A stretch of 64,000 bases of DNA from Bacteroidales bacterium (GCA_046485075.1 JAWOHR010000091.1:19668-83667), one strand, 5' to 3'; shown: positions 46,185 through 63,324, counted from the stretch's first letter. Program-made: numbers and translations. Notes: generated by a model from the sequence alone, not told the origin.

Positions 46185-46250
46185 TAAATACTCGATAGGT
46201 AGTGGAAAATGAAAGCTTAAAAGAAACACAATCGTATATTTAAAGAAAAA

Positions 46251-47315
46251 ATGATAACACTAGTTTTATATTTATTCCTTGCTTTATTTGTTTCATTCCT
46301 TTGTTCTATAATGGAATCTGTACTTCTTTCAACTCCACTGACTTTTTTGATTGTAAAGAAAAATAAAGGACACCACTGGGCAAAGTCTTTTATCGATTTG
46401 AAATTACATATAGATAAACCTTTATCGGCAATATTATCTTTAAACACTGTTGCTCATACCATTGGAGCCGCTGGTGTTGGAGCGCAAGCTGTAAAGGTAT
46501 TTGGCGAAGCATATTTCGGGATCGTATCTGCCATTCTAACCATTCTAATTTTAATATTTACAGAAATTATTCCAAAAACGATTGGGGCCAGATATTGGAA
46601 GGATTTAACAAGGGTTGCGTATTATACAATTAAATCAATGATTTTTATTACATATCCTTTAGTTTTATTGTCATCTGTAATAACCAAAGTTTTTTCAAAA
46701 CAAAATAATGAACAAACTACCAGTAGAGAGGAAATTGCAGCTTTGGCGAGCATAGGTATGGATGAAGGTTTGTTTTCGGACAAGGAGAATAAAATAATTC
46801 AAAATATACTTAAACTGAAAAATGTTAAAGTAACCGAGATTATGACTCCAAGAGTTGTGGTGGCCGTAGCTGATGAGAATTTGACTTTAAATGACTTTCT
46901 AAAAAACAAGGATTTCTTGAAATTTTCAAGAATTCCAATTTACTCGGGGAACGATGAAAACATTACCGGGTATGTGTTCAGACAGAAAATATTCGAAAAT
47001 TTAGCTGAAAACAACAATCATCTGAAACTAAAAGAAATAAAACGGGAGATTGTAATTGTTCCGGACACAATGGTGTTGTTCTCGTTATGGGAAAAACTAT
47101 TAGAAAAAAAGGAGCATATAGCACTGATAGTTGACGAATATGGTGGATTAGACGGGATTGTAACAATGGAAGATATCATTGAGACTCTTCTTGGATTGGA
47201 AATAGTTGACGAGAAAGATACAATAACCGATATGCAGAAATTTGCCCGAGAAAGATGGGAGACACGACAGGTAAAATATAATCTGATTGATAAATTGGAT
47301 ATGAATGACAAATAA
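46251..47315 (+). CDS. CNNM (DUF21) + CBS-pair membrane protein
   Basis: SFLCSIMES, AILSLNTVAHT.GA, EIIPK, IMTPR, FSRIP, VDEYGG..GIVTMEDIIE. Confidence 0.92.
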   Translation: MITLVLYLFLALFVSFLCSIMESVLLSTPLTFLIVKKNKGHHWAKSFIDLKLHIDKPLSAILSLNTVAHTIGAAGVGAQAVKVFGEAYFGIVSAILTILILIFTEIIPKTIGARYWKDLTRVAYYTIKSMIFITYPLVLLSSVITKVFSKQNNEQTTSREEIAALASIGMDEGLFSDKENKIIQNILKLKNVKVTEIMTPRVVVAVADENLTLNDFLKNKDFLKFSRIPIYSGNDENITGYVFRQKIFENLAENNNHLKLKEIKREIVIVPDTMVLFSLWEKLLEKKEHIALIVDEYGGLDGIVTMEDIIETLLGLEIVDEKDTITDMQKFARERWETRQVKYNLIDKLDMNDK

Positions 47316-47411
47316 TTGTCGCTAAATTATTTTGGATTCTGAAATACTATTTTCTTCGGAGACGGAATTTACACCACCCCCAGGCGATCAGTTTTCATTT
47401 CACTGGCAAAT

Positions 47412-47443
47412 CGGAATTTCTGAGCAAACGTCAGGCTAATATG
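47412..47443 (+). repeat. Degenerate right end of the attC-like repeat plus cassette left boundary
   Basis: CGGAATTTCTGAGCAAACG resembles CGGAACTTCGTTTAGCAAGGC (56266-56286). GTCAGGCTAATATG (47430-47443) is near-complementary to 48043-48057. Confidence 0.55.
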
Positions 47444-47472
47444 AAAAGAAGAAGATTTCTACCAAGAAGATG

Positions 47473-47503
47473 ATTAGTACTAATAAAGTACGTATATTTG
47501 TAC
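47473..47503 (+). promoter_or_regulatory. yefM-yoeB promoter/operator
   Basis: Perfect palindrome ATTAGTACTAAT (47473-47484); GTAC cores at 47477, 47488 and 47500 (11-12 bp apart); TATATTTG -7 element at 47493-47500. Confidence 0.75.
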
Positions 47504-47524
47504 TTAATAAAATACTTAAATATT

Positions 47525-47782
47525 ATGATTGCTGCGAATTATACCGAATTTAGGATAAAGCTAAAAAAGTATCTTGATAACGTTGAGGAGAATAATGAGA
47601 CCTTGATTATCAAAAGGGGTAAAGGAAAAGGGACAGTTTTGATTTCTTTGGATGAATATAATTCTATCATGGAAACAGTTCATCTGTTAAGCTCTAAAGC
47701 GAATGCAGATAGGCTTTATGAATCAATCAAGCAAATGAAAGAAGGAAAAGTATTTCAGAAGGATCTTATAGAGGAGAAATGA
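47525..47782 (+). CDS. yefM: Phd/YefM antitoxin
   Basis: MIAANYTEFR..LKKYLD.V......LIIKR...VLISLDEYNS..ET.HLL. ATG 47525 lies downstream of the promoter. Confidence 0.92.
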   Translation: MIAANYTEFRIKLKKYLDNVEENNETLIIKRGKGKGTVLISLDEYNSIMETVHLLSSKANADRLYESIKQMKEGKVFQKDLIEEK

Positions 47783-48039
47783 GAATAATATTTTCAAAAA
47801 ACTCATGGGAGGATTATACGTCATGGCTTGCGGAAGATAAGAGCATGTTGAAAAAAATAAATGAGCTGATCAAAGATATTCAAAGAACCCCATTTGAAGG
47901 AAAAGGTAAACCTGAGCCGTTAAAATATGATTTGGCAGGGTTTTGGTCACGGAGAATTAATAGAGAACATAGATTGGTTTATCAGGTTATAGATAACGAA
48001 ATCTTAATCTATAGCTGCAAATACCATTATGATAAGTAA
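47779..48039 (+). CDS. yoeB: Txe/YoeB toxin
   Basis: WEDY..W, GKGKPEPLK, WSRRINREHRLVY, YHY; ATGA overlap with the antitoxin. Confidence 0.95.
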   Translation: MRIIFSKNSWEDYTSWLAEDKSMLKKINELIKDIQRTPFEGKGKPEPLKYDLAGFWSRRINREHRLVYQVIDNEILIYSCKYHYDK

Positions 48040-48042
48040 GAA

Positions 48043-48155
48043 CATACTAAGCCTGACAGCTAGACCAAATTGCTTAACTTACAGCTAAAAGTAATTTTTG
48101 GTCCCACCCTTACGGGCTTCACAGTCTGCTCGGGCAAGCACGGCAGTCTCCGCTC
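48043..48155 (+). repeat. attC-like intergenic repeat, copy A (left and middle parts; right end missing)
   Basis: ...GCCTGAC AGCTAGACCAAATTGCTTAACTTACA...GTAATTTTTGGTCCCACCCTTACGGGCTTCACAGTCTGCTCGGGCAAGCACGGCAGTCTCCGC aligns with copies at 56113 and 57250. Confidence 0.8.
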
Positions 48156-48181
48156 ACTTCTCATGCCCTTCTTTCCACTAA

Positions 48182-50272
48182 CTACCAGCTTGCGTTTTGA
48201 AGTACATTCCCTGAACTCAGGTCTTCAAACTCATTCACTGACTCGAAATCGCTATTAATGCTCCCCAGGTTTGCACCAATGGCTATGCCGTAACCTGCAC
48301 CATGCGCTATTCTTGAGCGGGTGACATTGAGTTTCGATACGACGTTTTCACCTACATATAAGTTTGCAGTCGGAACGCATGACTGGTCAATTTTTCCCGC
48401 ATATTCAATGACGGTATTATCAAGGATATTATGATCGCTGTTGGACTGAAAATGAATTCCATTCCAGTAACCTTTTGTTTCGGAAAGTCCCGTAAAAACA
48501 ATTTTCAACTCATCTGTTCCCTGGGCATTCAGATAGCCGTTACCGTTGATTTTGATTCCTTTCCCGTCGGCAAATTTCAATACCGCCCCTGGCAACAGCT
48601 TTAATCCGGATTGTATGCCCAGGTTTTCACTTACCAGGTATGTTGCCCCAAAATTCAATTTAGGCCAGACCGATTCCTCGTGGTTGGTTCGTAATAAAAC
48701 CGAAGCAATTATTTCAATTCCATTGTGCCCGTTGCCAATGAATTCCATGGCAACCATATCGTTGGCTTTCCATACTTCATTAGCAGGTAATGCCATTGCC
48801 GCTTTGGTATTGTAACCAAACTTATTGAACGAACAGGCTGTTAAACCGGCCTTATTTTCAACATATAGCCCATATCCTCCGCTCCTTCCGATCTTTGAAT
48901 TGTTAATGCTGAGTTTTGCCTTACGCTCACCATCCAGTATGATCGCAGCATTTTGTTCAAAGCCATCTATGGGTTGACTACCGGCACCATATATCTCAAC
49001 ATACTTCAATTCATTATTTTCATTAGCGGACTGAATGCTAATACCTTTCCAGTATCCGGTTTCATTTGGTTCAGCTCCGTGGAACTTTATGGGATCAGCT
49101 CCGGTACCCTGGGCGATGATATAACCATTGTACCCGACAACAAATTCTGCTCCGGCATCAAATAAAAAATGAGTCCCGTGCAGAATCCTCAACCCACTTG
49201 ATACATGCACTTTGCCCATAATACGGTACGGCACTGTTTGAGCGGGAGTGTGATTGTCAATGGCCCGCGACCAAAATATTTCTTCCAGCCCGTATACATT
49301 GTCCCCCAGTACATCAATCATATTTACTTCATTATCGAAAATGTAGCCATTCATGGTATTGATTTGTGATGCGGGAATCAGGGCCGGACGGTGGTTGTTT
49401 ATCAGGAAAACATCAGAGGTACTAACATTTAAACTGGTGGCTGATTCAACTACAAGACCATAAGCCTTACTATACTGAAGGGTTGATGTCGAAAGCGTCA
49501 GCTTTGCATGTGATTCACTATCGAGCGCAAGATTGGCTGCGTAATCGATTCCGATAGCAGTATTACTTCCCCCGTATTCGATGATCACATATTTAAGGAG
49601 ATTCAGTTCGCTGGGCGAATTAATGATCAACCCCTTCCAGTACCCGGGTGTTTTTTCCTTACCGGTGAAAATCACTTCCTGTTCAACCCAACCTTCGGCA
49701 CGAATGATTCCCTGAGATTCAAGATACATGGCTTTATCGGCTTCAAAGGCGATGGTCACCGAGGGTCCTATCGTAAGTAATCCTGTCACATGGACATCTT
49801 CAGTGATCATATAATCAGGAATTGTGGGATCATCAATCAGGTTTGTAAGGATCCTGTCTTCCTGAATATCCTGGCTGATAATGACCGTTTCATTATCCGG
49901 AGCATTCGTTTCCCCGTTTACCTTAATGTTGATATCATCGGTATCAGAAAAAAAATTGTTTTGTATTTTCAACTCAACTACATAAATTCCTGCTCTATCT
50001 GCAGTGAACGTTGGCGAAACAGTGGTTGCATCTGTCAAAGTAGCAGTACTGTTCTCTGGTTTACTTTTGATGTTCCAGAGATACTGTAATGCCTTATCAT
50101 TCTCATCTTTGGAGTTGGACCCATCGAGAACAAGCACTTGATTTATTATTACTTGCTGGTCATTTCCTGCGTTGGCTTCCAATGTGTTAATTGGAGGATT
50201 TTCTATTACTTCCTCTTCACATGAAGTGAATAGTAATGAAACTGCGAACAATACGATTAATGCTTTTTTCAT
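48182..50272 (-). CDS. Lipoprotein with PKD/Ig-like domain and three long beta-helix-like repeats
   Basis: MKKALIVLFAVSLLFTSC lipobox; ANAGNDQ..LDGSNS..W PKD-like domain; repeats centred on GYWKG/GYWKG/GYWNG. Confidence 0.8.
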   Translation of the reverse strand: MKKALIVLFAVSLLFTSCEEEVIENPPINTLEANAGNDQQVIINQVLVLDGSNSKDENDKALQYLWNIKSKPENSTATLTDATTVSPTFTADRAGIYVVELKIQNNFFSDTDDINIKVNGETNAPDNETVIISQDIQEDRILTNLIDDPTIPDYMITEDVHVTGLLTIGPSVTIAFEADKAMYLESQGIIRAEGWVEQEVIFTGKEKTPGYWKGLIINSPSELNLLKYVIIEYGGSNTAIGIDYAANLALDSESHAKLTLSTSTLQYSKAYGLVVESATSLNVSTSDVFLINNHRPALIPASQINTMNGYIFDNEVNMIDVLGDNVYGLEEIFWSRAIDNHTPAQTVPYRIMGKVHVSSGLRILHGTHFLFDAGAEFVVGYNGYIIAQGTGADPIKFHGAEPNETGYWKGISIQSANENNELKYVEIYGAGSQPIDGFEQNAAIILDGERKAKLSINNSKIGRSGGYGLYVENKAGLTACSFNKFGYNTKAAMALPANEVWKANDMVAMEFIGNGHNGIEIIASVLLRTNHEESVWPKLNFGATYLVSENLGIQSGLKLLPGAVLKFADGKGIKINGNGYLNAQGTDELKIVFTGLSETKGYWNGIHFQSNSDHNILDNTVIEYAGKIDQSCVPTANLYVGENVVSKLNVTRSRIAHGAGYGIAIGANLGSINSDFESVNEFEDLSSGNVLQNASW

Positions 50273-50385
50273 GTCTTTTGTATGATTATATTTTATGATA
50301 CAAAATTGACACGAATCAGTAGGATGTGAAATACCTGATCGACAGGAATTCAACTACCAAGTAGACGGTATTTTTTGACTGGAAA

Positions 50386-51039
50386 CTAATTAATCAGTTT
50401 ATGCTTTAGTGCAAACTTGTAGATACCAAGTGAATTTCTCACGCCTATTTTCTTCATTAAATTTTTACGGTGGGTTTCTACCGTTTTAATACTAATGAAT
50501 AATTTTTCGGCAATTTCAACATTTGAATTTTCTAAAGCGACCATCTTTAAAATTTCAGTTTCTCTTTCTGTGAGGATATCCAATTCGCTTATTTCTTCTT
50601 TGACTTTCTTTTTCTTTAGAAATAGACTTTGTGCCAACTGGGTGCTTATTGACTGGCTCAAATAATTCTCTCCCTTCATTACCTGAAGTATGGCTAATTC
50701 GAGTTCTGCTTTACCGGTATTTTTCAGGATATAACCGGAAGCTCCTGCCTCCAGCATCGCCTGAATCGACTCCAATTCATTGTCCATGGTCAGTCCAAGT
50801 ACTTTTACCGAAGGATAAAGTTCCCGGATCATTCTGGTGGCTTCCAGTCCATCTATATCGGGCATGTGAAGATCTACAATCACAAGATCTCCTTTTATTG
50901 TTTTCAGTTTTTCCAATAGCTGCGCTCCATTATTCACGGAAGCAACTATTTCTACATAAGCGATCTGCGAAAGCAAAGCGTGCAATCCGTCCAAAAACAT
51001 CTGGTGATCATCGGCCAATAAGATTTTAATTTTGTCCAT
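50386..51039 (-). CDS. NarL/LuxR-family response regulator
   Basis: LADDH, VDLHMP, GASGYILK, LTERE...IAEKLFIS.KTVETHRKN. Confidence 0.95.
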   Translation of the reverse strand: MDKIKILLADDHQMFLDGLHALLSQIAYVEIVASVNNGAQLLEKLKTIKGDLVIVDLHMPDIDGLEATRMIRELYPSVKVLGLTMDNELESIQAMLEAGASGYILKNTGKAELELAILQVMKGENYLSQSISTQLAQSLFLKKKKVKEEISELDILTERETEILKMVALENSNVEIAEKLFISIKTVETHRKNLMKKIGVRNSLGIYKFALKHKLIN

Positions 51040-51042
51040 CCG

Positions 51043-54000
51043 TCAGGCATTTAAAGGAATAGTAACGTTATAAATGGTTCCCCGGTTCAAAGATGAATCA
51101 ACATCAAAATAACCATTTAGAAGTTTCACCCTTGAGTGGATATTTTTTAATCCCAAACCCGAATTTACCACGCTTGTATTAAATCCGACTCCATCATCTT
51201 CAACCATTAAGTTAATACCATCGTCGGTTTGGGTAATACTCATGTCAATTTGTTTTGCTGAAGCATGTTTGATGATATTATGAATGATTTCCTGAATAAT
51301 ACGGTACAATGTAAATTTAATGGCTTCTGATAAATTGTCAGCTAAGCCATAAGTCTGAAAATGATACTTTAATCCGTTTCTCTTTAACAAATTTTCAGCA
51401 ATTTCAGTTAGACTTTTGCTTTTAAGATCCGGAGGCATAAGGTTGTGTGAAATTGTCCTGATTTCATCAATACTTTCATCAAGCAACTGTAAAGGTTTTT
51501 GTATGAGTTGATCAGTTGACTCAATCCCAGATAAATTTAATTTGACTAAAGCCAGCATTTGCCCCACACTGTCATGCAATTCCTCGGCAATCCGTTTCCT
51601 TTCTTTCTCCTGAGATTCGATTACCGCCTCCATTTTTTTCTGTTCCTGAATTTGTAATTCCTGATTCAGCCGGTTCAAATTTTCATTATAAATGGCATTT
51701 GCCAAAGCAATGGAAGTGTACTCGATCAATAATGAAAACAAATCATTTTTTTCAGTATTCTCTGAATTCATGTCTTCAAGATAAATCAGACCTACTGTTT
51801 CCAAACCAGATAAAATGGGGTAACAAAATACATTGGCAGGATTGGATTGAATAAAATATGGATCATCGGCAAAATGGACTATCTTTCTCACATCTTCCAG
51901 CATGACCTTCTCGGCCTTATTGATTGCGAAATTTAAAACTTTGCAGGGCAGTTGGGTTTCAATCTCACTTAGGGGTATATTCTCCAAACCAGACCATTCA
52001 GGCCTGTTCGTTAAAAGCACTTGCCAGATGTTGTTCTGCTGGATCAATATAACACCAACCCGGGCTTTGCTTTGTTCCACCAGGTTTGATAATAAAAATT
52101 CGCCAAGTTTTGCCAAATTCATTTTCTGACTTAGGGCTGTTTTATTAATGATGCTTCTAACCCATTGATAATCTGGATATAATGATGGTCTGACAGAAAG
52201 ACTACTTATAATTATAAATGGATATTTTTGTTTCATCCACTCAACCTTGGCATCGGCTCCCCATTTTGAATACGATTTGAAGGCATCTTTCAGATAAATG
52301 CCGGCCAAATGATGCCTGCTTTTGCTGAGATAATATTCTCCGGCCAATTCGGCGGCGATGGCAGCGTGGTGAATAAATTTCTGTGCCTTCGCTTCCTGAA
52401 TAGCCTGATCGAATAACATTGTGGCGATTTCAAATTCGCCTTTGCATTTGGCTATTTCAGCTTCAATTAATAATGCTTTGTGAAAATAGTTGCCCGATCC
52501 AAAGTCCGAGAGCCTCCGGAATTCTTCCAGCTTTGGAGTAACCTTGTCCAAAACCTCTTTCAATAACAGAGGGTTCCTGTAAGCCGATTGTAACAGGCTT
52601 AAGCTAAAAAATAAATAGTGCTCAAGTTTAATCTGGAAACCACGATAAACGTTTTCAAGGTTCTCGCAGGCATACCCGGCATCCAAAGCCCTGGAATAAT
52701 TACCTGATAAGTAATTAAGCTTTTGTAAGGCAAGTTTTAAATGATACCTGCCACTGAGGTTATACTCTGCCTCTTTGATTAAATCTTCTGAGAAATCAAA
52801 TTTGCTTTCCTGAAAACCCGGTTTAATCCCGGCAAGGTAAGCGCTCAGGTCGGAATCACTGCTGCTGATAAAGAAAATATGTTGATTTTGGCTTTCTAAC
52901 CTTTTGGAATATGAAATATGCTCCTTGAGATTTTTCCCTCGGTAAATATTTAATAACCTGATATTTGTGGCGCAAAATGAGGCGTAATGATGATCTCCTG
53001 CTTCTCTCGCCAACTGAACCGATTCCTTCAACTTTTTCACACATACTTTATAGTGGTTTTCCCAGGCAAAAAAGTTTAGAGTTGCAATATAATAGACGAT
53101 ATGTGCATAACTGTTAAATGGAGGTTGCCCGATCATCCGGAGTGAAATTTTCCCCAATAGAAATGCCATTGATACATATGATCTGCTAACAGATGCAGAT
53201 AAGAAACTAACTGAAAATAAAACCGGAGTCATGGGTGTGAGTCCATTTGTAAAACTCATCAATAAAAATTTAATTCCCATGAAAAGATTTTTCCTTACAT
53301 CCATGTAATAGACAAAAGTCATGGAATTCATTACCAGCTTCATCAAATCCTGATATTCCTGGTCGGGATTTATCAAAAGATTAAAATTGGTATCTTCAGT
53401 TATACCGGCAGTAAACTGGTTGATTTCGTATGAATCGGCTGCGGCTTGCCGCAATATCTCATCCGGCCGATCAGGAAAGACAATACCAAAATCATTCAAC
53501 ACCGATTCCAGGCTATTGAGCCCATCCACTAAGATTTCCTGTACATCATTTTTGTAAATCAATGCTGAACAAACTCTTATCTTGATCAGGGTTGCTAAAA
53601 TTTTCTGATGCCTGTTTATTTTTAATTTCAAAACTTCGTTCGAGTAAAATAATGCCTGATCGAATTTTTGCATCAGGAACATGGTTTCGGCATATCCAAA
53701 CTGAATGAAAAATTCCAGATCATCATTGCTTATTTCCCTATTTTCAAACAAATCCATCAGTTTTTGATCGCTGACAACTATTCCAGCAGGCGGATGGTAT
53801 TTTACCAATTGATCAGCAAACGAATAATACTTCCAGGCCCTTTCAAATGCAGATTTTTTAATGGCTAACCGTGCTGCCTGAATATTTAAAAGAATATGTT
53901 TGGGAGCAAATCCACATTTTGTTTTTTCCGTTTCCCAGCCGGCATTGAGATGATTGATAGCCTGAAAAAAACCATTTTGATCGTAATTATCCAACCCTGA

Positions 54001-55233
54001 CAAGATGATACGACCGATTTTCTGATGAAGAACGAATTTCTGATGATCGGTTATTAATTCATTGGCAGCTGTAAATATATTGTCGTGTGCAAAAATATAA
54101 TTGGAGTCTTCTTTTATCAGTAACCCATCATTTGTCATTTTCAAAAGAATCAGGTCAATTTCTTCTGAAGACAACCTAATGATTTGTTTTAACAAATCTG
54201 CTTCAAAATAGAACCCAATACAGGAAGCCGCAGAAAATAGATGCATTTGATGAGGAGGCAACATTTTAAGTTGTTGCTGGACGAAATTGACCGAACTTTT
54301 TGCCCGATTGAACCTTGGAAGTTTTTCCCAGAAGAAGGAATCGTGGTTGGTTTCATTTTTAATTAAGTGCTCATTTTCAATAACTTTAATTATTTCTTTG
54401 ACTTTAAACGGATTGCCTTCACTTTCATATTCCATATATTTATTAAATGCATCTGACTCTTGTTGGTTGAACTTCCATTGGGTAGGAATAAGTAATTTAA
54501 TATATTGTGGTTCCAGTGGATTTAGGGAATAGGTAAGCGTTCTACCCGGGTTTTGTTTTTTTAAATTGTCGATTTTTAATTGTAAATCGGGTTTGTCTTC
54601 AAGAGGACGGTAAGCACCGATAATGATTAAATCAGTTACTGCATTACGGTTTATAAGTTCCTCAATTAAAGTCCATGAAGCATTGTCTGCCCATTGCAAA
54701 TCATCCAGAAAAAGTATGATTTGATATCCGGTGCGGGTGATTGATTTTAGAAATTTATTTAAAAAATAGTAGAATTTTGACTTAATCTGATGTGCCTCTG
54801 TTTTATCAGGTGGCTGAATATTGAACTGATTTCTGCCAAAGAAAGGTTGCAGTTCTTCAAAAACAGAAGTTACGGTACCAATATTATTTTGCAGAGTTGA
54901 GACAGCATTTTCTTTTAGTTTGTTAAGTTCTTCTTCCGATAAAACAAGAATCTGATTCATCCATCCCTTCATCGCCTCTTTCATCGCCTGGTATGGAATC
55001 TTCCCAGGCTGATTGCTGTATTTCCCATATATTTTGAAGCACTTCAGCTTTTTATAATCGAATAAAACCTTCTGGATTAAGGTTGTTTTACCAATACCTG
55101 CTTGTCCCTCAATAAGTAGCAAAGAGGTATCTGAATTTTTAAATTCAGCCATCGAATTTAAAAGAAACACCAATTCCTCTTCACGTCCAATGAAATAATG
55201 ATCCATAAAGGGCTTTTCCGTAAGAGTTGTCAT
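51043..55233 (-). CDS. Soluble AAA/STAND ATPase - helical repeat - GAF-like - HisKA_3/HATPase histidine kinase
   Basis: FIGREEE, GQAGIGKT, LFLDDLQWAD, GNPF, FAHD; ERKRIAEELHDSVGQ, EIIHNIIKHA, EDDGVGF, GLGLKN. Confidence 0.87.
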   Translation of the reverse strand: MTTLTEKPFMDHYFIGREEELVFLLNSMAEFKNSDTSLLLIEGQAGIGKTTLIQKVLFDYKKLKCFKIYGKYSNQPGKIPYQAMKEAMKGWMNQILVLSEEELNKLKENAVSTLQNNIGTVTSVFEELQPFFGRNQFNIQPPDKTEAHQIKSKFYYFLNKFLKSITRTGYQIILFLDDLQWADNASWTLIEELINRNAVTDLIIIGAYRPLEDKPDLQLKIDNLKKQNPGRTLTYSLNPLEPQYIKLLIPTQWKFNQQESDAFNKYMEYESEGNPFKVKEIIKVIENEHLIKNETNHDSFFWEKLPRFNRAKSSVNFVQQQLKMLPPHQMHLFSAASCIGFYFEADLLKQIIRLSSEEIDLILLKMTNDGLLIKEDSNYIFAHDNIFTAANELITDHQKFVLHQKIGRIILSGLDNYDQNGFFQAINHLNAGWETEKTKCGFAPKHILLNIQAARLAIKKSAFERAWKYYSFADQLVKYHPPAGIVVSDQKLMDLFENREISNDDLEFFIQFGYAETMFLMQKFDQALFYSNEVLKLKINRHQKILATLIKIRVCSALIYKNDVQEILVDGLNSLESVLNDFGIVFPDRPDEILRQAAADSYEINQFTAGITEDTNFNLLINPDQEYQDLMKLVMNSMTFVYYMDVRKNLFMGIKFLLMSFTNGLTPMTPVLFSVSFLSASVSRSYVSMAFLLGKISLRMIGQPPFNSYAHIVYYIATLNFFAWENHYKVCVKKLKESVQLAREAGDHHYASFCATNIRLLNIYRGKNLKEHISYSKRLESQNQHIFFISSSDSDLSAYLAGIKPGFQESKFDFSEDLIKEAEYNLSGRYHLKLALQKLNYLSGNYSRALDAGYACENLENVYRGFQIKLEHYLFFSLSLLQSAYRNPLLLKEVLDKVTPKLEEFRRLSDFGSGNYFHKALLIEAEIAKCKGEFEIATMLFDQAIQEAKAQKFIHHAAIAAELAGEYYLSKSRHHLAGIYLKDAFKSYSKWGADAKVEWMKQKYPFIIISSLSVRPSLYPDYQWVRSIINKTALSQKMNLAKLGEFLLSNLVEQSKARVGVILIQQNNIWQVLLTNRPEWSGLENIPLSEIETQLPCKVLNFAINKAEKVMLEDVRKIVHFADDPYFIQSNPANVFCYPILSGLETVGLIYLEDMNSENTEKNDLFSLLIEYTSIALANAIYNENLNRLNQELQIQEQKKMEAVIESQEKERKRIAEELHDSVGQMLALVKLNLSGIESTDQLIQKPLQLLDESIDEIRTISHNLMPPDLKSKSLTEIAENLLKRNGLKYHFQTYGLADNLSEAIKFTLYRIIQEIIHNIIKHASAKQIDMSITQTDDGINLMVEDDGVGFNTSVVNSGLGLKNIHSRVKLLNGYFDVDSSLNRGTIYNVTIPLNA

Positions 55234-55325
55234 TCTCTTGTTAAAGAATTGAAGATAACTAAGATAACGCTATATATTTTCCTTTGTTCAATAATATTTT
55301 CTTTCCCTGAAATGAAAGACAAGAG

Positions 55326-55392
55326 TAATTAACACCAGATATACAATTATTGATCAACCTGGTATAATTTCGTTTAGCGAGGCATTGGCTAC
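55326..55392 (+). repeat. Compact or degenerate attC-like copy and left boundary of the second TA cassette
   Basis: Clear right end AATTTCGTTTAGCGAGGC ATTGGCTAC (55366-55392); weaker left end TAATTAAC-ACCA-GATATAC-AATT. Confidence 0.7.
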
Positions 55393-55450
55393 AATACCAG
55401 AAGGAAATTATGCAATTAGATAATAATTGCGTAATGGAAAGGAAAAATCG

Positions 55451-55458
55451 TAAATTTG
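55451..55458 (+). promoter_or_regulatory. -7 promoter element of the TA pair
   Basis: TAAATTTG (TAnnTTTG) 16 nt before the antitoxin ATG. Confidence 0.6.
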
Positions 55459-55474
55459 GAAAAATGAAGAAAAT

Positions 55475-55657
55475 ATGTTAACCAAGGATAAGATAAAGAA
55501 GTCGATAGATTCTTTGCCTGATAATTTAACTGTTGATCAGGTTATAGATAGAATTATCATGCTGGATAAGATTGAACAGGGGCTAAAGGATGTAGAGTCT
55601 GGCAATGTATTTACTACTGAAGAAGCTAAAGCCAAGTTAATTAAATGGTTAAAGTAA
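55475..55657 (+). CDS. Putative type II antitoxin
   Basis: 60 aa (IDSLPD...KIEQGLKDVESG...EEAK) overlapping the start of a RelE/ParE gene. Confidence 0.8.
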   Translation: MLTKDKIKKSIDSLPDNLTVDQVIDRIIMLDKIEQGLKDVESGNVFTTEEAKAKLIKWLK

Positions 55658-55953
55658 TTTGGACAGCCAGATCTTTAAAAGACCTTGAAGAAATTGGAGA
55701 ATATATCTCAAAGGATTCTCCAAAATATGCAAAACTTACCCTTGAGAAGCTTATTGAAAATACAAAGTTAATAGAGCATAATCTGTTAATTGGTCGAATT
55801 GTCCCAGAGGTAAAGCAAAGAGATTTTCGTGAGATTTTAACTGGAAATTATAGAATCATTTATCAGACAATGAAAGGGGAGTATGCCTACATATTAACCA
55901 TTCATCATACTTCAAGATTGCTATCGAACAATCCAACTTTTAAGAGAAAATAG
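55645..55953 (+). CDS. RelE/ParE-family toxin
   Basis: VIWTARSLKDLEEIGEYISKDSP..A, GRIVPE, REI..GNYRIIY, I.H..R. Confidence 0.9.
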   Translation: MVKVIWTARSLKDLEEIGEYISKDSPKYAKLTLEKLIENTKLIEHNLLIGRIVPEVKQRDFREILTGNYRIIYQTMKGEYAYILTIHHTSRLLSNNPTFKRK

Positions 55954-56112
55954 AGCAACAGTAGTCAACATCGTTTGTAAGCCATTGCTGGTATCGGTTT
56001 ACGGTAGCTATCACTCTTGGTTACCTTGTGGAAGCTTAACCACCCATTCAGTCGACTAAAATCTCTTCGTGCTCCGCATTCCCGGTATTTTAGGAATGTG
56101 ACTGAATGACTC

Positions 56113-56299
56113 GCTAAACAAAATTGTGTAACTTACATATCGTACCCCGACTGATGGTCGGCATTGAGCAAAACGCAACTGAACAAAATGCTAAACGTAA
56201 TTTGGTCGCGCCCTTGCGGGCTTTACAGTCTGCCCGAGCAAGCTCAGCAGCCTCCGCCCTAAGTACGGAACTTCGTTTAGCAAGGCATTATTTTCAATT
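56113..56299 (+). repeat. attC-like intergenic repeat, copy B (longest, about 175 bp)
   Basis: GCTAAACAAAATT ... AACTTCGTTTAGC (inverted ends) AAGGC ATTATTTTCAATT; internal hairpins CCGACTGATGGTCGG and CTGCCCGAGCAAGCTCAGCAG. Confidence 0.85.
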
Positions 56300-56325
56300 G
56301 TAAAAGAAATCAGACACACCTAAAC

Positions 56326-56703
56326 ATGAATAAAAAAAGACAGGAAAGTGAACCCCCATTGGCGACATCAGAATGGGGCTGGAGATATCATCATCTAGGA
56401 ATACCCACAGATAAGGCTATTGATGGAGAGAAATATATTCCACAATTTAAGTTTTATGTTTCCGGTTTTAATACAAGTCCATACGGAATTGAATGGATGC
56501 GGTTTGACAAGGATAGTCCCATTCATGATCTTATTAAAATGGTTCCTCATATAGCCTTTGAAGTCGATGATCTGGATTTGGAACTTGCCAGATTTAACTT
56601 CAATATTCTAACTCCACCTAATTCTCCTGGCGAGGGGATAATGGTTGCAATGATTGAGCATAACGGAGCCCCGATTGAATTAATTGAATTTGAGAAAAAT
56701 TGA
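56326..56703 (+). CDS. VOC/glyoxalase-superfamily protein
   Basis: YHHLGIPT, PHIAFEVDDL, GAPIELIEF. Confidence 0.82.
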   Translation: MNKKRQESEPPLATSEWGWRYHHLGIPTDKAIDGEKYIPQFKFYVSGFNTSPYGIEWMRFDKDSPIHDLIKMVPHIAFEVDDLDLELARFNFNILTPPNSPGEGIMVAMIEHNGAPIELIEFEKN

Positions 56704-56788
56704 AATAACAACTGAACACAGCAGCTAAACTAAATTGCTTAACTTACATATCGTAACCCGACCGATGGTCGGCATTGAGCATAACGCA
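56698..56788 (+). repeat. attC-like repeat, copy C (left half)
   Basis: AATTGAAATAAC ... AGCAGCTAAACTAAATTGCTTAACTTACATATCGTAACCCGACCGATGGTCGGCATTGAGCATAACGCA; nearly identical to 56113-56177. Confidence 0.85.
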
Positions 56789-56800
56789 TTAAAACCAAAA

Positions 56801-57238
56801 ATGAAACCATTATTACCTATACTACCTATAATTCTCTTCTTCATTGGATGCGGCCATTCAAAAAGCAAGGAAGAAATTAAGAATGAAATATTCCAGACTG
56901 AGAAGGCTTTTGAGAAGATGACATTAGAAAAGGGCATCACAGAAGCCTTTTACTATTTTGCAGATGAAAATGCAGTCATAAAAAGGGAGAATGATACACT
57001 TATTTCAGGTAAAGAGAATATCAGAATCTATTATGAGAAAAAAGACATAATAGATGCAACAGTTAATTGGACACCAGACTTTATCGATGTTTCTAAATCT
57101 GGTGATCTTGGATATACTTATGGTAAATATATTTGGAAGATCAAAGGTATTGATGGTATTATCGTGGAATATAAGGGTGTCTTTCACACTGTGTGGAAAA
57201 GGCAGGAGGATAATGGTTGGAAGTATGTTTGGGATTAA
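56801..57238 (+). CDS. NTF2-like/DUF4440 lipoprotein
   Basis: LFFIGC lipobox; TEKAF, AFYYFADENA, WTPDFIDVS.SGDLGYTYG, TVWKRQ.DG.WK. ATG 56801. Confidence 0.82.
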   Translation: MKPLLPILPIILFFIGCGHSKSKEEIKNEIFQTEKAFEKMTLEKGITEAFYYFADENAVIKRENDTLISGKENIRIYYEKKDIIDATVNWTPDFIDVSKSGDLGYTYGKYIWKIKGIDGIIVEYKGVFHTVWKRQEDNGWKYVWD

Positions 57239-57249
57239 TAACTATTTAT

Positions 57250-57361
57250 CTGCCGTTAACAAACTAAATTGCTTAACATTCAGGCTTTAAGTCTGCCTGA
57301 GCAAGCTCGGCAGCCTCCGCCCTCAGTCCAGAACTTCGCTTAGCGAGGCATTAGAGGTAAG
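57250..57361 (+). repeat. attC-like repeat, copy D (internally shortened, both ends present)
   Basis: CTGCCGTTAAC AAACTAAATTGCTTAAC...GTCTGCCTGAGCAAGCTCGGCAGCCTCCGCCCTCAGTCCAGAACTTCGCTTAGCGAGGC ATTAGAGGTAAG. Confidence 0.85.
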
Positions 57362-57378
57362 CAAAAAAATCAATAACA

Positions 57379-58167
57379 ATGAAAACTTTTAAATTCAGAC
57401 TACTATTTGTCAGCATTTTATTTTCCTCAAAAATATTATACAGTCAAACTGATAATAAATTATTTTTGGGAGAAAAGAACTTGATCCATTCCGAAATACT
57501 TGTTCTGCATATATGCATACTTAAATCGTAGTGAACTGTTTAAAGGATTTATTTCTATGGATCCTGCATTAAACTGGGATAATTATATATGCGAACAAAT
57601 GCTAAGATCATTACCCATTAATGCACAGAATTTTAACAACAGGTTGTATATTTCATCGGCTCACAACGCACCTGAGGGGAAACGCGATAAAGGACTACTT
57701 AGAATGTCCCAACTGTCATTTACAAAAGAACTAAAAAAGAAAGGTGTAAATAACAACAAATTTGAGCTGTTTGAAAAAGAAATACACTTGACTGTTGCTT
57801 ATCAAAGTTTACATTCTGGATTAATGTTTATTTTTCCCGATTATTATATTTTTAAAAATCCTCAGTTTACGCCAGAAATTCCATTTATCGAAGAGTTTTA
57901 TAGAAATGTTTCGGATTCGTATGGAATGAATTTTGCTCCACCTGAATATTTAATTGAGATGATAGGAAAGTACTATCTTTTTGAGAATTATTTAAGTTAA
58001 ATACTGTCAATTATCCTAATTCATACAAAGCTTTTGAATTTTTGGCTAAAGCCTACATAGCATCTGGTGATCTTGATAATGCAATTTTGAATTATCAAGA
58101 ATCTTTGAATTTAAATTCAAGTAATAATAATATTAAAAAAGTTTTATCTGAACTTGAATTAAAATAA
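57379..58167 (+). pseudogene. Fragmented secreted alpha/beta-hydrolase (esterase) with TPR tail
   Basis: Three pieces in different frames: MKTFKFRLLFVSILFSSKILYSQ...IHSEIL; FCIYAYL...ISMDPALNW...EIHLTV (ORF 57500-58000); FKLNTVNYPNSYKAFEFLAKAY...NYQESLNLN (stop 58167). No G-x-S-x-G remains. Confidence 0.78.
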
Positions 58168-58386
58168 TCCTTTGAATGAGAGTACCAGAATGCCCTTAAA
58201 GTGTTCCTCATGCACCTTTTGTTGCAGGGAGCTTAGCTGATTCATGGCAAGTTTTCAAATTCTGACTGTATTCTTGATGTTGATTCAGCTTATGTAAATG
58301 CTCAAACCAGTTCGCCACACATATGGCATGCCAGTGAGTTTTTTTGTATTTATTGGAAATGAAAAAATAACTACGCACGTGAACAC

Positions 58387-59151
58387 TTAATCCTTTTTCT
58401 GGTTTTCGATGGCTTTGCGAAGTGCAATTACTTCTGATTTCAGTTCTTCAATTTCCTTGGAGCCGGCAATCGGGGCGTCTTTATCTTCGGCGTCACGACC
58501 GATGAAATAAGTGGCAAAAGTCGCAGTGACGTAGCCGAAAATGCTATATCCGAAAACAGCAATTAGAAAACCTAACACGCGACCTTCAGGTGTCATCGGA
58601 TTAAATTCGTTACTTGCCGTGATCACCCGCATTGCTGTCCACCAAAGCGCAAGCCCGTAACTGGTAAAGCCGGGGTTCGGGTTTTCCAGAGCATACATTC
58701 CGGCAGCTCCTGCAAAGGTTACAATCAGAGTAATGCCCATCACATAGCCAAAGGCACGGCGCTGCATGGTTTTGCCTAAGCTTCGCATGCCTCTGTTGAG
58801 TGATGATATAATCCGCACAAGCCTGATACTCCGAAGGCCGCGTAAAAGCCTAACAAACCGGAAAACCTGAAATATACGTAATGCTGGAATAAACAATGAA
58901 ATGGCGGTAAGCCAATTTTTTTTCAGGAAAGGCAGTTTTTCTGGGGCGAGTGCAAACTTGATCAGGAAATCAATAATAAATATTCCCCAAATTCCAATGG
59001 TAACAAATTCGAGGGTCTTGTTGATTCCCCAGATTAGCTCAGCTACGAGCAGGACAAGCCATACGAATCCCAGGAAGATCATAGGTCCTTCAAGAATTTG
59101 CTCTACCTTTCTGAGCAGCCTTTTTCGTTCACTTTTAATGTCGCGTTTCAT
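58387..59151 (-). CDS. Ion transporter / voltage-gated channel-like membrane protein
   Basis: Multiple TM helices, Arg-rich S4-like RIFQVFRFVRLLRGLRSIRLVR, pore helix ALWW, PMTPEGR. ATG 59151 preferred. Confidence 0.85.
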   Translation of the reverse strand: MKRDIKSERKRLLRKVEQILEGPMIFLGFVWLVLLVAELIWGINKTLEFVTIGIWGIFIIDFLIKFALAPEKLPFLKKNWLTAISLFIPALRIFQVFRFVRLLRGLRSIRLVRIISSLNRGMRSLGKTMQRRAFGYVMGITLIVTFAGAAGMYALENPNPGFTSYGLALWWTAMRVITASNEFNPMTPEGRVLGFLIAVFGYSIFGYVTATFATYFIGRDAEDKDAPIAGSKEIEELKSEVIALRKAIENQKKD

Positions 59152-59289
59152 ACTTTGGGATCTCCGAATATAAGAAAAACTCCTGCAAATTTTGAACACC
59201 GGCAATTGATTTCAAATGAATGTCCAAGCAAAGTAATCTGCTGTTCCAGCTTACGGACAACACCTAAAAAAAGCCGGTGTAAACTGATA

Positions 59290-59321
59290 GGAACTTCATT
59301 TAGCGAGGTATTAGCGGCAAG
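59290..59321 (+). repeat. attC-like repeat, copy E (right end only)
   Basis: GGAACTTCATTTAGCGAGGT ATTAGCGGCAAG. Confidence 0.75.
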
Positions 59322-59411
59322 CACATTCAAACCTACAAAAGGATTTTCATACTGAATTCCAAGCTTTTATCGTAAATTAACGCTATTAAATATACTTTAA
59401 ATGCATCAAGT

Positions 59412-60152
59412 ATGAAAGTACTTATCATCTACGCGCATCCAAATCCTATGTCATTTACAAAAGCTGTCCTTGACAATTTTGTAAAAGGTCTTCAGGAAGT
59501 GGGACATCAATATGAAGTAGTCGATTTGTATAAAATTAAGTTCAACCCTGTATTGCAGGATAAGGATTCTGCTTTTTTTGTGGATAAAGATATGCCTGAA
59601 TGGCTTTTCAAGCAAATGGACATGAGGAAGATGATAATCGAGCTTGCGGGTGGGCCTGTAAGAAGGTTGATTGCAAAATTGTACATTAAGAACAAGAGTG
59701 ATGATGATCTGCGTGAGCTTATTAGTTCTCAGAAGCCCAGGGATGTGTTAACACAGCAAAAGAAAGTAGCAGAAGCGGATGTGCTCGTATTCATAACACA
59801 GGTGATCTGGATGCACTTTCCCGCGATAATGAAGGGGTGGATAGAACGAGTTTTTTCTTATGGATTTGCATACAGATTGAATGAAAGCGGATGGAATGGT
59901 GATCCGGATGGCAGAATTCCTTTATTGAAAATTAAGAAAGCTATAATAATGCATCCTACTTTCTTCAACGAAATAGTTTACAGGGAAAAGGGATTCAGAG
60001 AGTCCATGGAAAAAATTATTGATAACTGGAGCCTGAAATACCCCGGAATTCAAACTGTCGACCATATCTACTTCCATTCTATATTGGCAGTGGATAATGA
60101 CACACGTAAAAAGTATCTTGAAATAGCATATTTAAAAGGTAAAAACTTATAA
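59412..60152 (+). CDS. NAD(P)H-dependent oxidoreductase (flavodoxin-2 / quinone reductase-like)
   Basis: IIYAHP..SF, DLY..FNPVL, AD.LVF..W..FPAIMKGWIERVF..GFAY. Confidence 0.9.
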   Translation: MKVLIIYAHPNPMSFTKAVLDNFVKGLQEVGHQYEVVDLYKIKFNPVLQDKDSAFFVDKDMPEWLFKQMDMRKMIIELAGGPVRRLIAKLYIKNKSDDDLRELISSQKPRDVLTQQKKVAEADVLVFITQVIWMHFPAIMKGWIERVFSYGFAYRLNESGWNGDPDGRIPLLKIKKAIIMHPTFFNEIVYREKGFRESMEKIIDNWSLKYPGIQTVDHIYFHSILAVDNDTRKKYLEIAYLKGKNL

Positions 60153-60156
60153 GATT

Positions 60157-60408
60157 ATGAATACTCTTAATTTTACAGACATTAACTTTTATGCAGTATT
60201 TGTTGCATGGATAATTCACATTGTTATAGGATTGTTATGGTTTCGGCCTAAGCTGTTTGGAAATGAATGGTCAAAGCTGACAGCAAAAGAACTTAACCCC
60301 GAAAAAAAATGGATTATTCCAGGTTTTGCAGGTCATCTGCCAATGTTTCCCCTCCTAGCCTTTGAATACGATTTAGGAGAGCTGATGTTAAAAGTATTAA
60401 AGATGTAA
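60157..60408 (+). pseudogene. Truncated DUF1761-like membrane protein
   Basis: INFYAVFVAW...IGLLWF.PKLFG..W matches the DUF1761 N-terminus, but the ORF is only 83 aa and appears to lose similarity after about residue 60. Confidence 0.55.
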
Positions 60409-60462
60409 GCGTAATTATTGTAGCATAAAAATGAATATCATGATGCACCATTATTGGGAATT

Positions 60463-60498
60463 GCTAATCAAAATTGCTTAACTTACCTATCGAGTCGG
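60463..60498 (+). repeat. attC-like repeat, copy F (left end only)
   Basis: GCTAATCAAAATTGCTTAACTTACCTATCG..GTCGG. Confidence 0.75.
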
Positions 60499-60516
60499 TT
60501 CTTTAAAAGGGAAATC

Positions 60517-61710
60517 ATGAAAAATTTAAAACTTATCCCAATTGTAGTTATCAGTCTAATGATTTTCTCCTGTGAGAAAGAAAAGGACAATGAACCTGAC
60601 TTGAATTTTGAAAAAGTCAATGGCTTTGTACAAAAAGGACCTTACCTGAATGGAACTGAGATAACAATTTCTGAGTTGACCAGTGATTTAGTTCCAACCG
60701 GAAAGAATTTCACGTCGCAGATTCTTGATAACAAAGGAACTTTTGAGATAGCGAATGTAGAATTGACATCTCAGTATGTCGAATTAAAAGCCGATGGATT
60801 TTATTTTAATGAAGTGAAAAACTCAAATTCATCTGCCCAACTGACATTATTTGCATTATCAGATTTATCAAATAAAAGCAACTTAAATGTTAATATACTT
60901 TCAAATTTGGAGAGAAATCGTGTTAAAACTCTCATTTCTCAAGGTGAAAGTTTTTCTGATGCAAAAAAAATGGCACAGAGGGAAATTTTATCAATTTTTG
61001 AGATTGAAAGAGAAGAAATTTCAGAATCAGAGCAATTGGATATTACAAAATCAGGAGATGATAACGCCATATTGCTGGCAGTTTCAGTAATACTTCAAGG
61101 TTACCTTTCTGTTTCGGATTTATCAGAATTGTCAGCGAATATCAGTACTGATATACGAGAAGATGGACAATTAAACAGTCAATCATTAGGCTCGACTTTG
61201 ATAAACAATGCTAAAACAATTAAATTAGAAACAATTAGGAATAACCTCGAAAGCAGATATGAGGAGCTTGGATTAAATATTACTATTCCTGATTTTGAAA
61301 AATTTGTAATTCAATTTATTAACAGTACAGATTTTGAATTTACAGGTTTTATTGAATATCCTGAAACAGGTAAACATGGAACAAATATACTTGATAAAGA
61401 AAAAACGATTTACACTGCGGGAACATATTCAATGAAAGCCATACTACCCGAAGGGACAAGCCTAAAAGTTAAGATAAGTGGACAAAATTGGTTTTATCCA
61501 GCATTCCAGGATAATACAGGTTGGGAGCATTCGGATTGGAATGATAAGGACAATTCCCGGATATTTACAGCCACAAGGACTGGTGAAATAGATTTTGAGA
61601 TATTCTTTGAAAGCTATCAAGACAGCACTATGTCAAACAAAACCAATCTCTTTGTTTACGAAAATGATGATATAGAACCAACATGGACAAAGGAGATTAC
61701 GGTGAATTAA
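60517..61710 (+). CDS. Hypothetical lipoprotein ('G.VQKGP...G' N-terminal domain family)
   Basis: LMIFSC lipobox; NGFVQKGPYLNG, GFYFNEV, NVNILS.LE, NAILLAVS.ILQ. ATG 60517. Confidence 0.75.
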   Translation: MKNLKLIPIVVISLMIFSCEKEKDNEPDLNFEKVNGFVQKGPYLNGTEITISELTSDLVPTGKNFTSQILDNKGTFEIANVELTSQYVELKADGFYFNEVKNSNSSAQLTLFALSDLSNKSNLNVNILSNLERNRVKTLISQGESFSDAKKMAQREILSIFEIEREEISESEQLDITKSGDDNAILLAVSVILQGYLSVSDLSELSANISTDIREDGQLNSQSLGSTLINNAKTIKLETIRNNLESRYEELGLNITIPDFEKFVIQFINSTDFEFTGFIEYPETGKHGTNILDKEKTIYTAGTYSMKAILPEGTSLKVKISGQNWFYPAFQDNTGWEHSDWNDKDNSRIFTATRTGEIDFEIFFESYQDSTMSNKTNLFVYENDDIEPTWTKEITVN

Positions 61711-61728
61711 AAATACGAAAGTAGCAGA

Positions 61729-62418: not shown

Positions 62419-62436
62419 GTTTTAATATATAAGACA

Positions 62437-63324
62437 ATGGCTTTCATCGATTATTACAAAATATTAGGAGTAGAAAAAAAGGCTACCGCAGGCAACATAA
62501 AGAGTGCCTACCGAAAACTAGCCAGAAAATATCACCCTGATTTGAATCCTAACGATGCAGAGGCGAATAAGAACTTTCAGCAAATCAATGAAGCGAATGA
62601 AGTACTTAGTGACCCTGAAAAACGAAAAAAATACGATAAATACGGGAAAGACTGGCAACATGCTGAACAGTTTGATAATGCAAACCAATCTCAGAAACAA
62701 TCATCAGATTTTCGTAGGCAAAAGTACTCCCGGGCACAATCCGACGGGGACTTTTCGGATTTCTTCGAAACCATGTTTGGTGGTTCAGCAAATGCCGGCA
62801 GAAGCAGGCAGTCAAAATTTAGAGGCGAGGATTATAACGCACAATTACAACTTGACCTTACAGATGCTTATATAACCCACAAACAAACGCTTACTGTAAA
62901 TGGAAGGAATATAAGAATTACCATTCCTGCCGGAATTGAAAACGGACAAACCATTAAAATAGCAGGACATGGGGGGCCGGGAATAAATGGCGGACCGAAC
63001 GGTGATTTGTACATTTCATTTTCAATAGCTAATCATCCTAAAATCAAAAGACTGGGTAATGATTTATATATGCAGGTTGAATTAGAATTATACACAGCAG
63101 TATTGGGAGGTGAAATTACCATCGATACCCTGAGTGGAAAAGTGAAGCTTAAAGTAAAGCCCGAAACGCAAAATGGAAGTAAGGTAAAACTCAAGGGGAA
63201 AGGATTTCCTGTTTATAAAAGCGATGGGCAGTTCGGAGACCTATACATAACTTATACAGTTAAGATCCCATCCAATTTAACCGAAAGGCAAAAAAGCTTA
63301 TTTACTGAATTATCAAAATCATAA
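62437..63324 (+). CDS. cbpA: DnaJ-class chaperone CbpA
   Basis: [31 protein letters not shown]-terminal DnaJ_C domain; no zinc finger. Confidence 0.9.

Follow-up and report, generated by a model that had tools for sequence, protein, structure and literature searches.

A decaying cassette array in a Bacteroidales genome, its probable attC-type repeat and a tyrosine recombinase lacking the integron-integrase extra domain

Introduction

Integron surveys define the integrase by an extra domain (PMC4889954, PMC2426708 and the bioRxiv archaeal-integron paper), and acquisition of the I2 helix is presented as the step that enabled recombination of single-stranded attC sites (PMC4792948, PMC7790495); here and below, statements about cited papers refer to the portions of each that were consulted. 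Bacteroidota are reported to be almost free of integrons (PMC9024848). Here we analyse a 64,000-nucleotide stretch of Bacteroidales bacterium (GCA_046485075.1, source genome G000; JAWOHR010000091.1:19668-83667, on the contig designated C27), in which an initial annotation had proposed a decaying, integrase-less array of gene cassettes separated by an attC-like hairpin repeat. This whole stretch is hereinafter designated the window, all positions are counted in it, and the other G-numbers denote genomes of relatives. We put at roughly three in four the probability that the repeat is a family of attC-type hairpins (about 95-210 nt) whose full form is a cassette without an open reading frame (ORF), that the window holds a decaying group of clustered attC sites that have no integron integrase with them (CALIN), and that the recombinase belonging to it is an Xer/IntI-like enzyme without the extra (I2) domain.

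As in described CALINs, short unrelated genes, toxin-antitoxin pairs among them, lie co-oriented in the window array with imperfect hairpin sites between them, and the array holds no integrase, shows signs of decay and low G+C, and varies in content among close relatives (PMC4889954, PMC9024848). It differs from CALINs in that its sites are 95-210 nt long, highly conserved in sequence, crossed at A|TT rather than G|TT and in several cases truncated, and in that a 7-kb opposite-strand block lies inside it. With the sedentary chromosomal integrons of the Vibrio type the system shares a fixed locus, a dominant attC family confined to a narrow taxon, and toxin-antitoxin and ORF-less cassettes (PMC13638679), whereas the window array is small and integrase-less and the associated recombinase is without the IntI extra domain. 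Co-orientation of the integrase gene with its cassettes, and an attI site downstream of that gene, recall the 'inverted integrase' integrons (PMC4889954). The IntIs of those integrons are found by the extra-domain profile; the recombinases described here lack the corresponding block. The Treponema integron is reportedly an instance of the 'inverted integrase' type.

Results

A co-oriented repeat with a covarying stem

Copies of the repeat were sought by a repeat search in the window, by whole-genome blastn with a full copy and by pattern scans for its two arms. With up to three mismatches allowed, the left arm matches at four + strand positions (48059, 56113, 56724 and 60463) and the right arm at four others on the same strand (55366, 56269, 57332 and 59292), where 100 dinucleotide shuffles predict 0 matches to either arm; one more right-arm match falls on the - strand, where it corresponds to the left arm at 56105 read as its complement. 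Seven of the eight copies listed in the initial annotation were confirmed, all of them on the + strand as it had stated, while the degenerate copy at 47412 was recovered neither by the repeat search nor by whole-genome blastn. The sole full-length copy in the window, aligned with a copy on contig C70, measures 241 nt and comprises a 5' part and a body; the six other confirmed copies are partial. The copies had been described as lying between short genes, which does not apply to the copy at 48059, since it abuts a 7.2-kb block of three genes on the opposite strand. With one full, one short two-armed and five truncated copies within 13 kb, and no recombinase match on C27 in a whole-genome search, the locus qualifies as a CALIN (two or more attC sites close together with no integrase near), provided that the repeat is accepted as attC, and the proposal of a CALIN-like array is supported.

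The inverted repeat ends noted earlier are real and pair over a longer stretch than had been described, forming a 15-bp outer stem (AATGnnnCGCTAAAC / GTTTAGCGnnnCATT). Structure and crossover were examined in an alignment of 11 copies from eight genomes, in which 97.6% of the outer-stem cells are paired and, in three pairs, both partners have changed (10 cells); the observed covariation score is reached by none of 500 shuffles, and slid controls pair at no more than 37%. Reading by eye also reveals an inner stem whose left arm carries a single bulged base, and the central part of the repeat is variable, the length of the site ranging from about 95 to 210 nt. The imperfect hairpin with L''/L' pairing, extrahelical bases and variable centre that characterise attC sites are thus all found in the repeat.

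Crossover position and the ORF-less cassette

Conservation among the 11 copies ends after ...CATT (...CGTT in the G007 copy), and the bases that follow differ in every copy, mostly reading TT(A/G)G.. and resembling TTRRRY. Heterologous junctions in G034, in G018 and on C70 place the crossover at ...GAGGCA|TT. In G034, for instance, a two-gene cassette starts with TTAGGCT right after the GCA of the repeat, and the attC that closes it has AGCCTAA(C) as its R''. A crossover within the GTTTAGC box (G|TTTAGC) is ruled out by the same junctions, which lie 13 nt further right; the initial annotation therefore named the wrong box and yet marked the right spot, GAGGC|ATT. The repeat accordingly carries the triplets AAT/ATT (ACTGAAT ... 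A|TTRRRY) in place of the canonical RYYYAAC ... GTTRRRY, while the other attC sites of the system are canonical (GCCTAAC ... G|TTAGGC).

The 5' extension of full copies starts with TTCAGTCGCATTC and pairs with GAATGCGACTGAA before the body, and two compensatory changes in this pairing occur in the variant of G034 and G018. Since the extension pairs as a cassette start does with its own R'', the full element is best described as an ORF-less cassette. The 5' part of the window copy correspondingly begins with TTCAGTC, complementary to GACTGAA in its own R'' region, within ...GACTGAAT.

A recombinase without the extra domain adjoins the repeat

The initial annotation had assigned the array to a tyrosine recombinase encoded elsewhere, and a frameshifted one is encoded on C70, where its gene lies directly upstream of a full repeat followed by two canonical cassettes and points the same way as they do. 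Across the whole of G000 no protein exceeds the cut-off of the curated integron-integrase model (TIGR02249); the closest partial match comes from C70, where it is spread over three frames and interrupted by a stop, its best piece scoring 90 bits against a cut-off of 265. The C70 recombinase lies on the same strand as the full repeat, 165 nt upstream of it, and the repeat is followed by a PIN-like gene with a small ORF and by a 174-aa lipoprotein-like gene. The start of the first cassette, TTAGCGGC, is complementary over 8 nt to the R'' of its own attC, GCCGCTAA(C), as is that of the second, TTAGCTGT, to ACAGCTAA(C).

Intact relatives of 282 aa, arranged likewise, are encoded in G036, G034 and G018 (C4), and the repeat is the first cassette behind the recombinase in these three genomes, in G062 and on C70 of G000. 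The junction in G036 and G034 reads ...ACCGGTG|TTCAG, with the repeat directly after it. G017 has, at this chromosomal locus of G036 and G034, a DUF433/DUF5615 cassette that enters precisely at ...ACGGTG|TT, before the repeat; the first bases of this cassette, TTAGGCCAC, are complementary to the R'' of its own attC, GTGGCCTAA(C). A TPR gene and others upstream are common to G017, G034 and G036, and the downstream side differs by whole cassettes. Complementarity between a cassette start and its own R'', the mark of a circular intermediate, is found on C70 and in G017, G034, G021, G018 and G019.

The associated recombinases consist of two domains, PF13495 and PF00589. Intact members score 206 against NF040815 (cut-off 220) and 205 against TIGR02249 (cut-off 265), the latter in two stretches that skip model positions 180-239. 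Missing from them is a 47-residue block that holds the ALER motif in the true IntIs of the genus, with which they share 31-33% identity; what accompanies the repeat is thus not a classical IntI, and the extra domain expected of the integrase in a complete integron is absent from the family. Among solved structures the best matches are to XerA (5hxy, 130 bits), a XerC-like protein (4a8e, 126) and, in two stretches, IntI4 (2a3v, 116); public names for members of the family are generic ('tyrosine-type recombinase/integrase', 'XerD'). The PF13495 and PF00589 architecture is that of the simple Xer-type recombinases (XerA, XerC and XerD) and of the 'integron-like' subgroup, in which the insertion is called 'not fully conserved' by Smyshlyaev et al. 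(PMC8138268); the consulted portion of that paper contains no statement that insertion-less members head cassette arrays. Unlike Xer proteins, which act at dif, the domain-less recombinase is not a housekeeping enzyme (it is broken in G000, and no match was found in G029), and behind it lie an attI-like site and chains of cassettes.

When one genome was scanned for each species, at least 574 relatives emerged, of which the best 80 were fetched. In a FastTree phylogeny of 108 recombinases, the root of which is arbitrary, 14 true IntIs form one clade (support 100) apart from a family of 90 sequences. Nested inside this family is a gut-Bacteroides clade adjoining IS91-type transposases; such IS91-linked recombinases of gut Bacteroides, Parabacteroides and Alistipes belong to the same family, although theirs precede a gene for an IS91-type transposase with a zinc finger instead of cassettes. 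At L093, L129 and L150 (gut Bacteroides, Alistipes and Rhodonellum) the gene behind that of the recombinase encodes an IS91-type transposase whose N-terminus is a zinc finger, and near-identical IS91-linked copies occur across different genera, with at least three such loci seen by eye.

Long forms of the recombinase (about 370-400 aa; L077, L084, L091 and L053) bear an N-terminal extension of about 100 residues that matches no Pfam family, and the broken copy on C70 (C70:2562-3116) is of this long form.

attI-like junctions and cassette chains

At all 19 readable loci of the genus, a conserved site ending in G|TT lies 65-270 nt past the stop codon of the recombinase and is followed by differing sequence. 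The joining of varied first cassettes at G|TT, as expected of an attI site, is thus seen behind the domain-less recombinases of relatives as well as on C70; it is not seen inside the window. In a junction scan, GTT sites 20-450 nt after the stop codon were taken and the reverse complement of the 9-mer beginning at that G was sought 120-5000 nt downstream, at those 69 of 89 loci that offer 400 nt or more of DNA past the gene, the other 20 being too short. Matches were obtained for 53 of 457 such sites, compared with 5 of 292 GTT sites inside the recombinase gene (Fisher p = 1.6e-7), and at least one match was found at 41 of the 69 loci across Bacteroidota, including 9 of 15 in the genus. Chains of cassettes that each begin with a match to their own attC comprise eight units in a metagenome-assembled genome (MAG) of Chryseolinea, seven in Pontibacter, six each in Ekhidna and G019, five in Draconibacterium and four in G013; the attCs of these chains are 53-236 nt long, and the first 8 nt of each unit are complementary to its own R''. 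None of the five chromosome-level genomes with such arrays has a match over the IntI cut-off.

These junctions also bear on a different explanation, in which the recombinase and its adjacent site are the end of an integrative mobile element and the variable 'first cassette' reflects differing insertion targets. The sequence after G|TT does differ between loci, many contigs end shortly after the recombinase, and IS91-linked relatives exist. However, G017, G034 and G036 share their upstream side and differ downstream by whole cassettes, and chains of up to eight units, each with a start complementary to its own R'', are not what random target DNA would provide; we regard this explanation as highly improbable, the least credible of those considered.

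In arrays on Ekhidna MAG chromosomes (L130 and L133) the attCs have a uniform length of about 231-236 nt, which equals or exceeds that of the repeat; very long attCs therefore occur outside this genus too. Many recombinase contigs (L053-L069) end about 100-1500 nt past the gene, which suggests that repeated attC or cassette DNA breaks short-read assemblies and hides arrays. A whole-genome scan for AACA...CCGTT with arm pairing proved useless, returning 250 matches against 371 in the reversed genome.

Observations that favour other readings

Several observations weigh against an attC-type repeat served by a domain-less recombinase. The bottom-strand fold of the full window copy (z = -1.65; other folds about -2) is no better than that of shuffles, compared with z = -5.4 for the G034 copy and -6.9 for a canonical attC of G021, so that it is covariation that carries the case for structure. 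At the crossover the triplet reads ATT/AAT instead of GTT/AAC, and in length the site exceeds most known attCs. Within the window, complementarity of cassette starts to their own R'' is weak, spanning 6 nt in the yefM-yoeB cassette and 7 nt in the ORF-less copy (TTCAGTC/GACTGAA); a strict 8-9-nt search finds no match at the other cassette starts there and returns the stem arms of the repeat itself and two AT-rich 8-mers taken as chance. Comparison of the proximal border (47316-47530) with the spacers of 24 recombinase loci, C70 included, and with two classical attI regions yielded only noise where an attI remnant might be expected. Some gut Bacteroides relatives adjoin IS91-type transposases and have no cassettes, and G029 has 12 repeat matches and neither kind of recombinase. 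Finally, the link between recombinase and cassettes is one of position, as read from the sequences. The weak own-R'' complementarity and the unremarkable fold of the full copy fit erosion of the window array without proving it.

A further group of observations on the same side concerns classical integrons. True IntIs are encoded in 13 of 41 genomes of the genus. The pair of DnaJ-like and MerR_2 genes that borders the window array also stands at the distal end of two other arrays, the classical one of G018 and one with classical attC sites in G013, for which a search gave no IntI; the window array is thus located where one relative's classical IntI array and another's classical-attC array end, beside a cbpA-like dnaJ. 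G000 itself has an integrase-less array of classical type (C67:15970-20344) with four or five attC sites of the GTAGAAC...GTTCTAC family, all on the + strand. Given the IntIs of the genus, this gene neighbourhood and the C67 array, the window array could have been served by a classical IntI that was later lost, and such an enzyme may have contributed to the locus. In its full form, this alternative takes the window array for the remnant of a classical integron that lost its extra-domain IntI, the repeat for one cassette or attC family on which that IntI acted, and the domain-less neighbour for incidental, as would follow, for example, from use of a secondary GTT site in trans; it would also agree with the published view that the extra domain is needed for attC recombination (PMC4889954, PMC4792948, PMC7790495).

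We nevertheless consider a classical remnant unlikely, though it is the strongest of the competing explanations. The repeat has no match on the true-IntI contigs of G007, G018, G019 and G034, and the classical arrays of G018 and G019 have a divergent intI and a different, homogeneous attC (GTAGAAC...GTTCTAC). The place of the repeat as first cassette behind the domain-less recombinase in five genomes, the absence of true IntI from the five chromosome-level genomes described above and the attI-like junction at a conserved place in 41 of 69 loci argue in the same direction. On C67, the sites are separated by small genes that include a toxin-antitoxin-like pair, and weaker attC matches occur on C199 and C125.

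Distribution and turnover of the repeat

In the G000 assembly (4.9 Mb, 230 contigs), blastn places the repeat at about 13 positions, eight of them in the window; outside it there are a full copy on C70 and left-half fragments on C135, C144, C85 and C166. All examined copies are co-oriented with their adjacent downstream genes, and the upstream neighbour on C144 is divergent. Of 36 other genomes of the genus 15 contain the repeat, compared with none of 24 from other families of the order. Copies that are few, clustered, directed one way and restricted to a genus do not behave like repetitive extragenic palindromes (REPs) or miniature inverted-repeat transposable elements (MITEs), for which many dispersed copies in two orientations and target duplications would be expected; no target-site duplications were seen by eye. 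The initial annotation would have been overturned by random orientation or core-gene neighbours across the genome together with fixed intervening genes, and this is not what was observed: the copies are few and run in one direction relative to their downstream genes, and the content of G029 differs from that of the window.

A non-autonomous element of MITE or REP type, or a structured RNA or terminator kept between genes, would account for the 15-bp terminal inverted repeats, for the fragments at four other chromosomal places directly before or behind ordinary genes and for left halves that often lie immediately 5' of a start codon, and the covariation is equally compatible with selection on DNA or RNA. 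Besides the low number, clustering and single orientation relative to downstream genes and the lack of visible target duplications, Rfam 15 gives no match at E <= 1 over 46000-62000, the borders of the repeat coincide with canonical cassette junctions, and one left-half copy is explained by a plain deletion (below). There is accordingly little to recommend such an element or RNA over a family of attC-type sites.

Turnover of the array was followed in G029, a sister species and the sole close relative among the genomes searched. Its flanks match those of the window at 93-96% identity (DUF2961, methyltransferase and CNNM genes on the left, DnaJ-like and MerR_2 genes on the right), while the interval between them is 34 kb in G029 against 15 kb here and largely different in content; the intervening genes are thus not fixed. 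Common to both interiors are the minus-strand block (94.5% identity over 7168 nt, inside the array in G029 as well) and the 125-aa protein cassette, whose gene block is 95.6% identical and stands in another context, and nothing else; homology with G029 restarts at 61161. The G029 array region has seven repeat copies, all on the + strand. The copy before the 125-aa gene block has lost its right half there by a deletion between short similar stretches, whereas its window counterpart is complete, which shows how stubs form. Such deletions, along with the frameshift in the C70 recombinase, bear out the description of the array as decaying.

The paralogous genes at C135:43296-44084 and C85:44056-44697, presumably Bro-N/DinD-like to judge from their sequence, are each followed by a left-half copy in ordinary chromosomal surroundings, and these genes may be single inserted cassettes. 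G029 has an additional gene for a 417-aa transposase-like protein just past the minus-strand block, and its array (L030/L031) holds IS91-like gene fragments. A DNA comparison of the hotspot across the genus failed, the flanks being matched in 5 and 7 of 41 genomes, mostly at about 67% identity.

Organisation of the window array

The array extends from 47474 to about 61710 without an integrase (Table 1), at a G+C content of 0.33-0.41 compared with 0.45-0.48 in the upstream flank. The minus-strand block interrupts it and truncates the attC behind yoeB. The borders of the ParD-like/ParE cassette were deduced from the crossovers of the neighbouring repeat copies, and no exact match to an own R'' was found for it. 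The TTAGTA at the start of the yefM-yoeB cassette is complementary to TACTAA at 48045-48050, the R'' position of its own attC, a match of just 6 nt. The 125-aa protein, earlier labelled VOC, has no Pfam match. Although short and internally deleted, the attC at 57258-57350 retains both arms. Overlapping + strand frames of 50 and 166 aa at 57379-58165, with trailing DNA that contains no clean ORF, resemble the remnant of a frameshifted gene. Two automated procedures were set aside: a chain-walk over the window picked remote chance 7-mers, and a generic hairpin finder was noisy within genes and useful solely in combination with reading by eye.

Table 1 Segments of the window array and its right flank, with Pfam matches (E-values)
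Feature	Position	Strand	Details
yefM-yoeB toxin-antitoxin cassette	47474-48153	+	starts TTAGTA at 47474; yefM 47525-47782 (PhdYeFM_antitox 8e-19); yoeB 47779-48039 (YoeB_toxin 9e-40)
attC of yefM-yoeB cassette, repeat-type	48044-48153	+	left part and middle; right side cut off
Non-cassette block	48182-55348	-	PKD-domain protein 48182-50353; LuxR-type response regulator 50386-51039; kinase 51043-55233 (1396 aa, AAA_16/TPR/HisKA_3)
Repeat right-end stub	55366-55384	+	ends ...GTTTAGCGAGGCA| at the inferred crossover
ParD-like/ParE toxin-antitoxin cassette	55385-56046	+	genes 55475-55657 and 55645-55953; start TTGGCTAC; ParE_toxin 1.4e-16
Full repeat copy, probable ORF-less cassette	56047-56287	+	5' part 56047-56112; body 56113-56287 with 15-bp outer stem; crossover after A56287
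125-aa protein cassette	56288-56799	+	gene 56326-56703; left-half attC 56722-56799
DUF4440-like lipoprotein and short attC	56801-57350	+	gene 56801-57238 (DUF4440 1.7e-4, under curated cut-off); internally deleted attC 57258-57350
Eroded segment	57351-59310	+	broken + frames 57379-58000; - strand ion-channel gene 58387-59205 (Ion_trans 4e-9); right-end stub 59292-59310
Oxidoreductase segment	59311-60492	+	flavodoxin-like NAD(P)H oxidoreductase 59412-60152 (Flavodoxin_2 7e-36); truncated DUF1761 gene 60157-60408 (9e-6, under cut-off); left-end stub 60463-60492
397-aa protein, no family	60517-61710	+	directly after left-end stub; last variable gene before VIT1
Right flank	61729-63650		VIT1 61729-62418; DnaJ-like gene 62437-63324; MerR_2 63336-63650

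Discussion

The covarying stem, the crossover position and the cassette signatures beside the recombinase are consistent with a reaction of the integron type, which we picture as follows. The single-stranded site would fold through its 15-bp outer stem, and a tyrosine recombinase would cut it at ...GAGGCA|TT; cassettes would be excised as circles and reinserted at an attI site; and the enzyme would be a recombinase without the I2 domain, its gene lying upstream of attI and the cassettes and pointing the same way. By analogy with integrons, such a recombinase would catalyse the cassette reaction, and the site would act as folded single-stranded DNA. Because the sole copy of the gene in G000, on C70, is frameshifted, the arrays of this genome would now only erode.

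Beyond the window, we lean, by a modest balance of the evidence, towards a broader proposal, in which a large unrecognised family of integron integrases without the I2/extra domain heads arrays of canonical attC sites, and the window repeat is its genus-specific family of A|TT-crossing attC sites and ORF-less cassettes. Members of the proposed family would be about 280-400 aa long, co-oriented with their cassettes and provided with an attI 3' of the gene, and would occur in Bacteroidota, in some Ignavibacteriota and Chlorobiota and in other MAGs. In the literature, subscription journals and supplements aside, we found no description of Bacteroidota cassette arrays headed by a recombinase without the extra domain, and the integrase family looks undescribed.

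Taken alone, the window is a tidy example of how an array erodes after its integrase breaks. The most interesting aspect lies outside it, in the recombinase family associated with the attC repeat. If domain-less recombinases run their arrays, the I2 helix is not required for the reaction, or another solution exists. If the proposal is true, part of the 'integrase-less' arrays in databases have an overlooked integrase adjoining them and are scored as integrase-less by surveys built on the extra domain, and Bacteroidota would hold many integrons.

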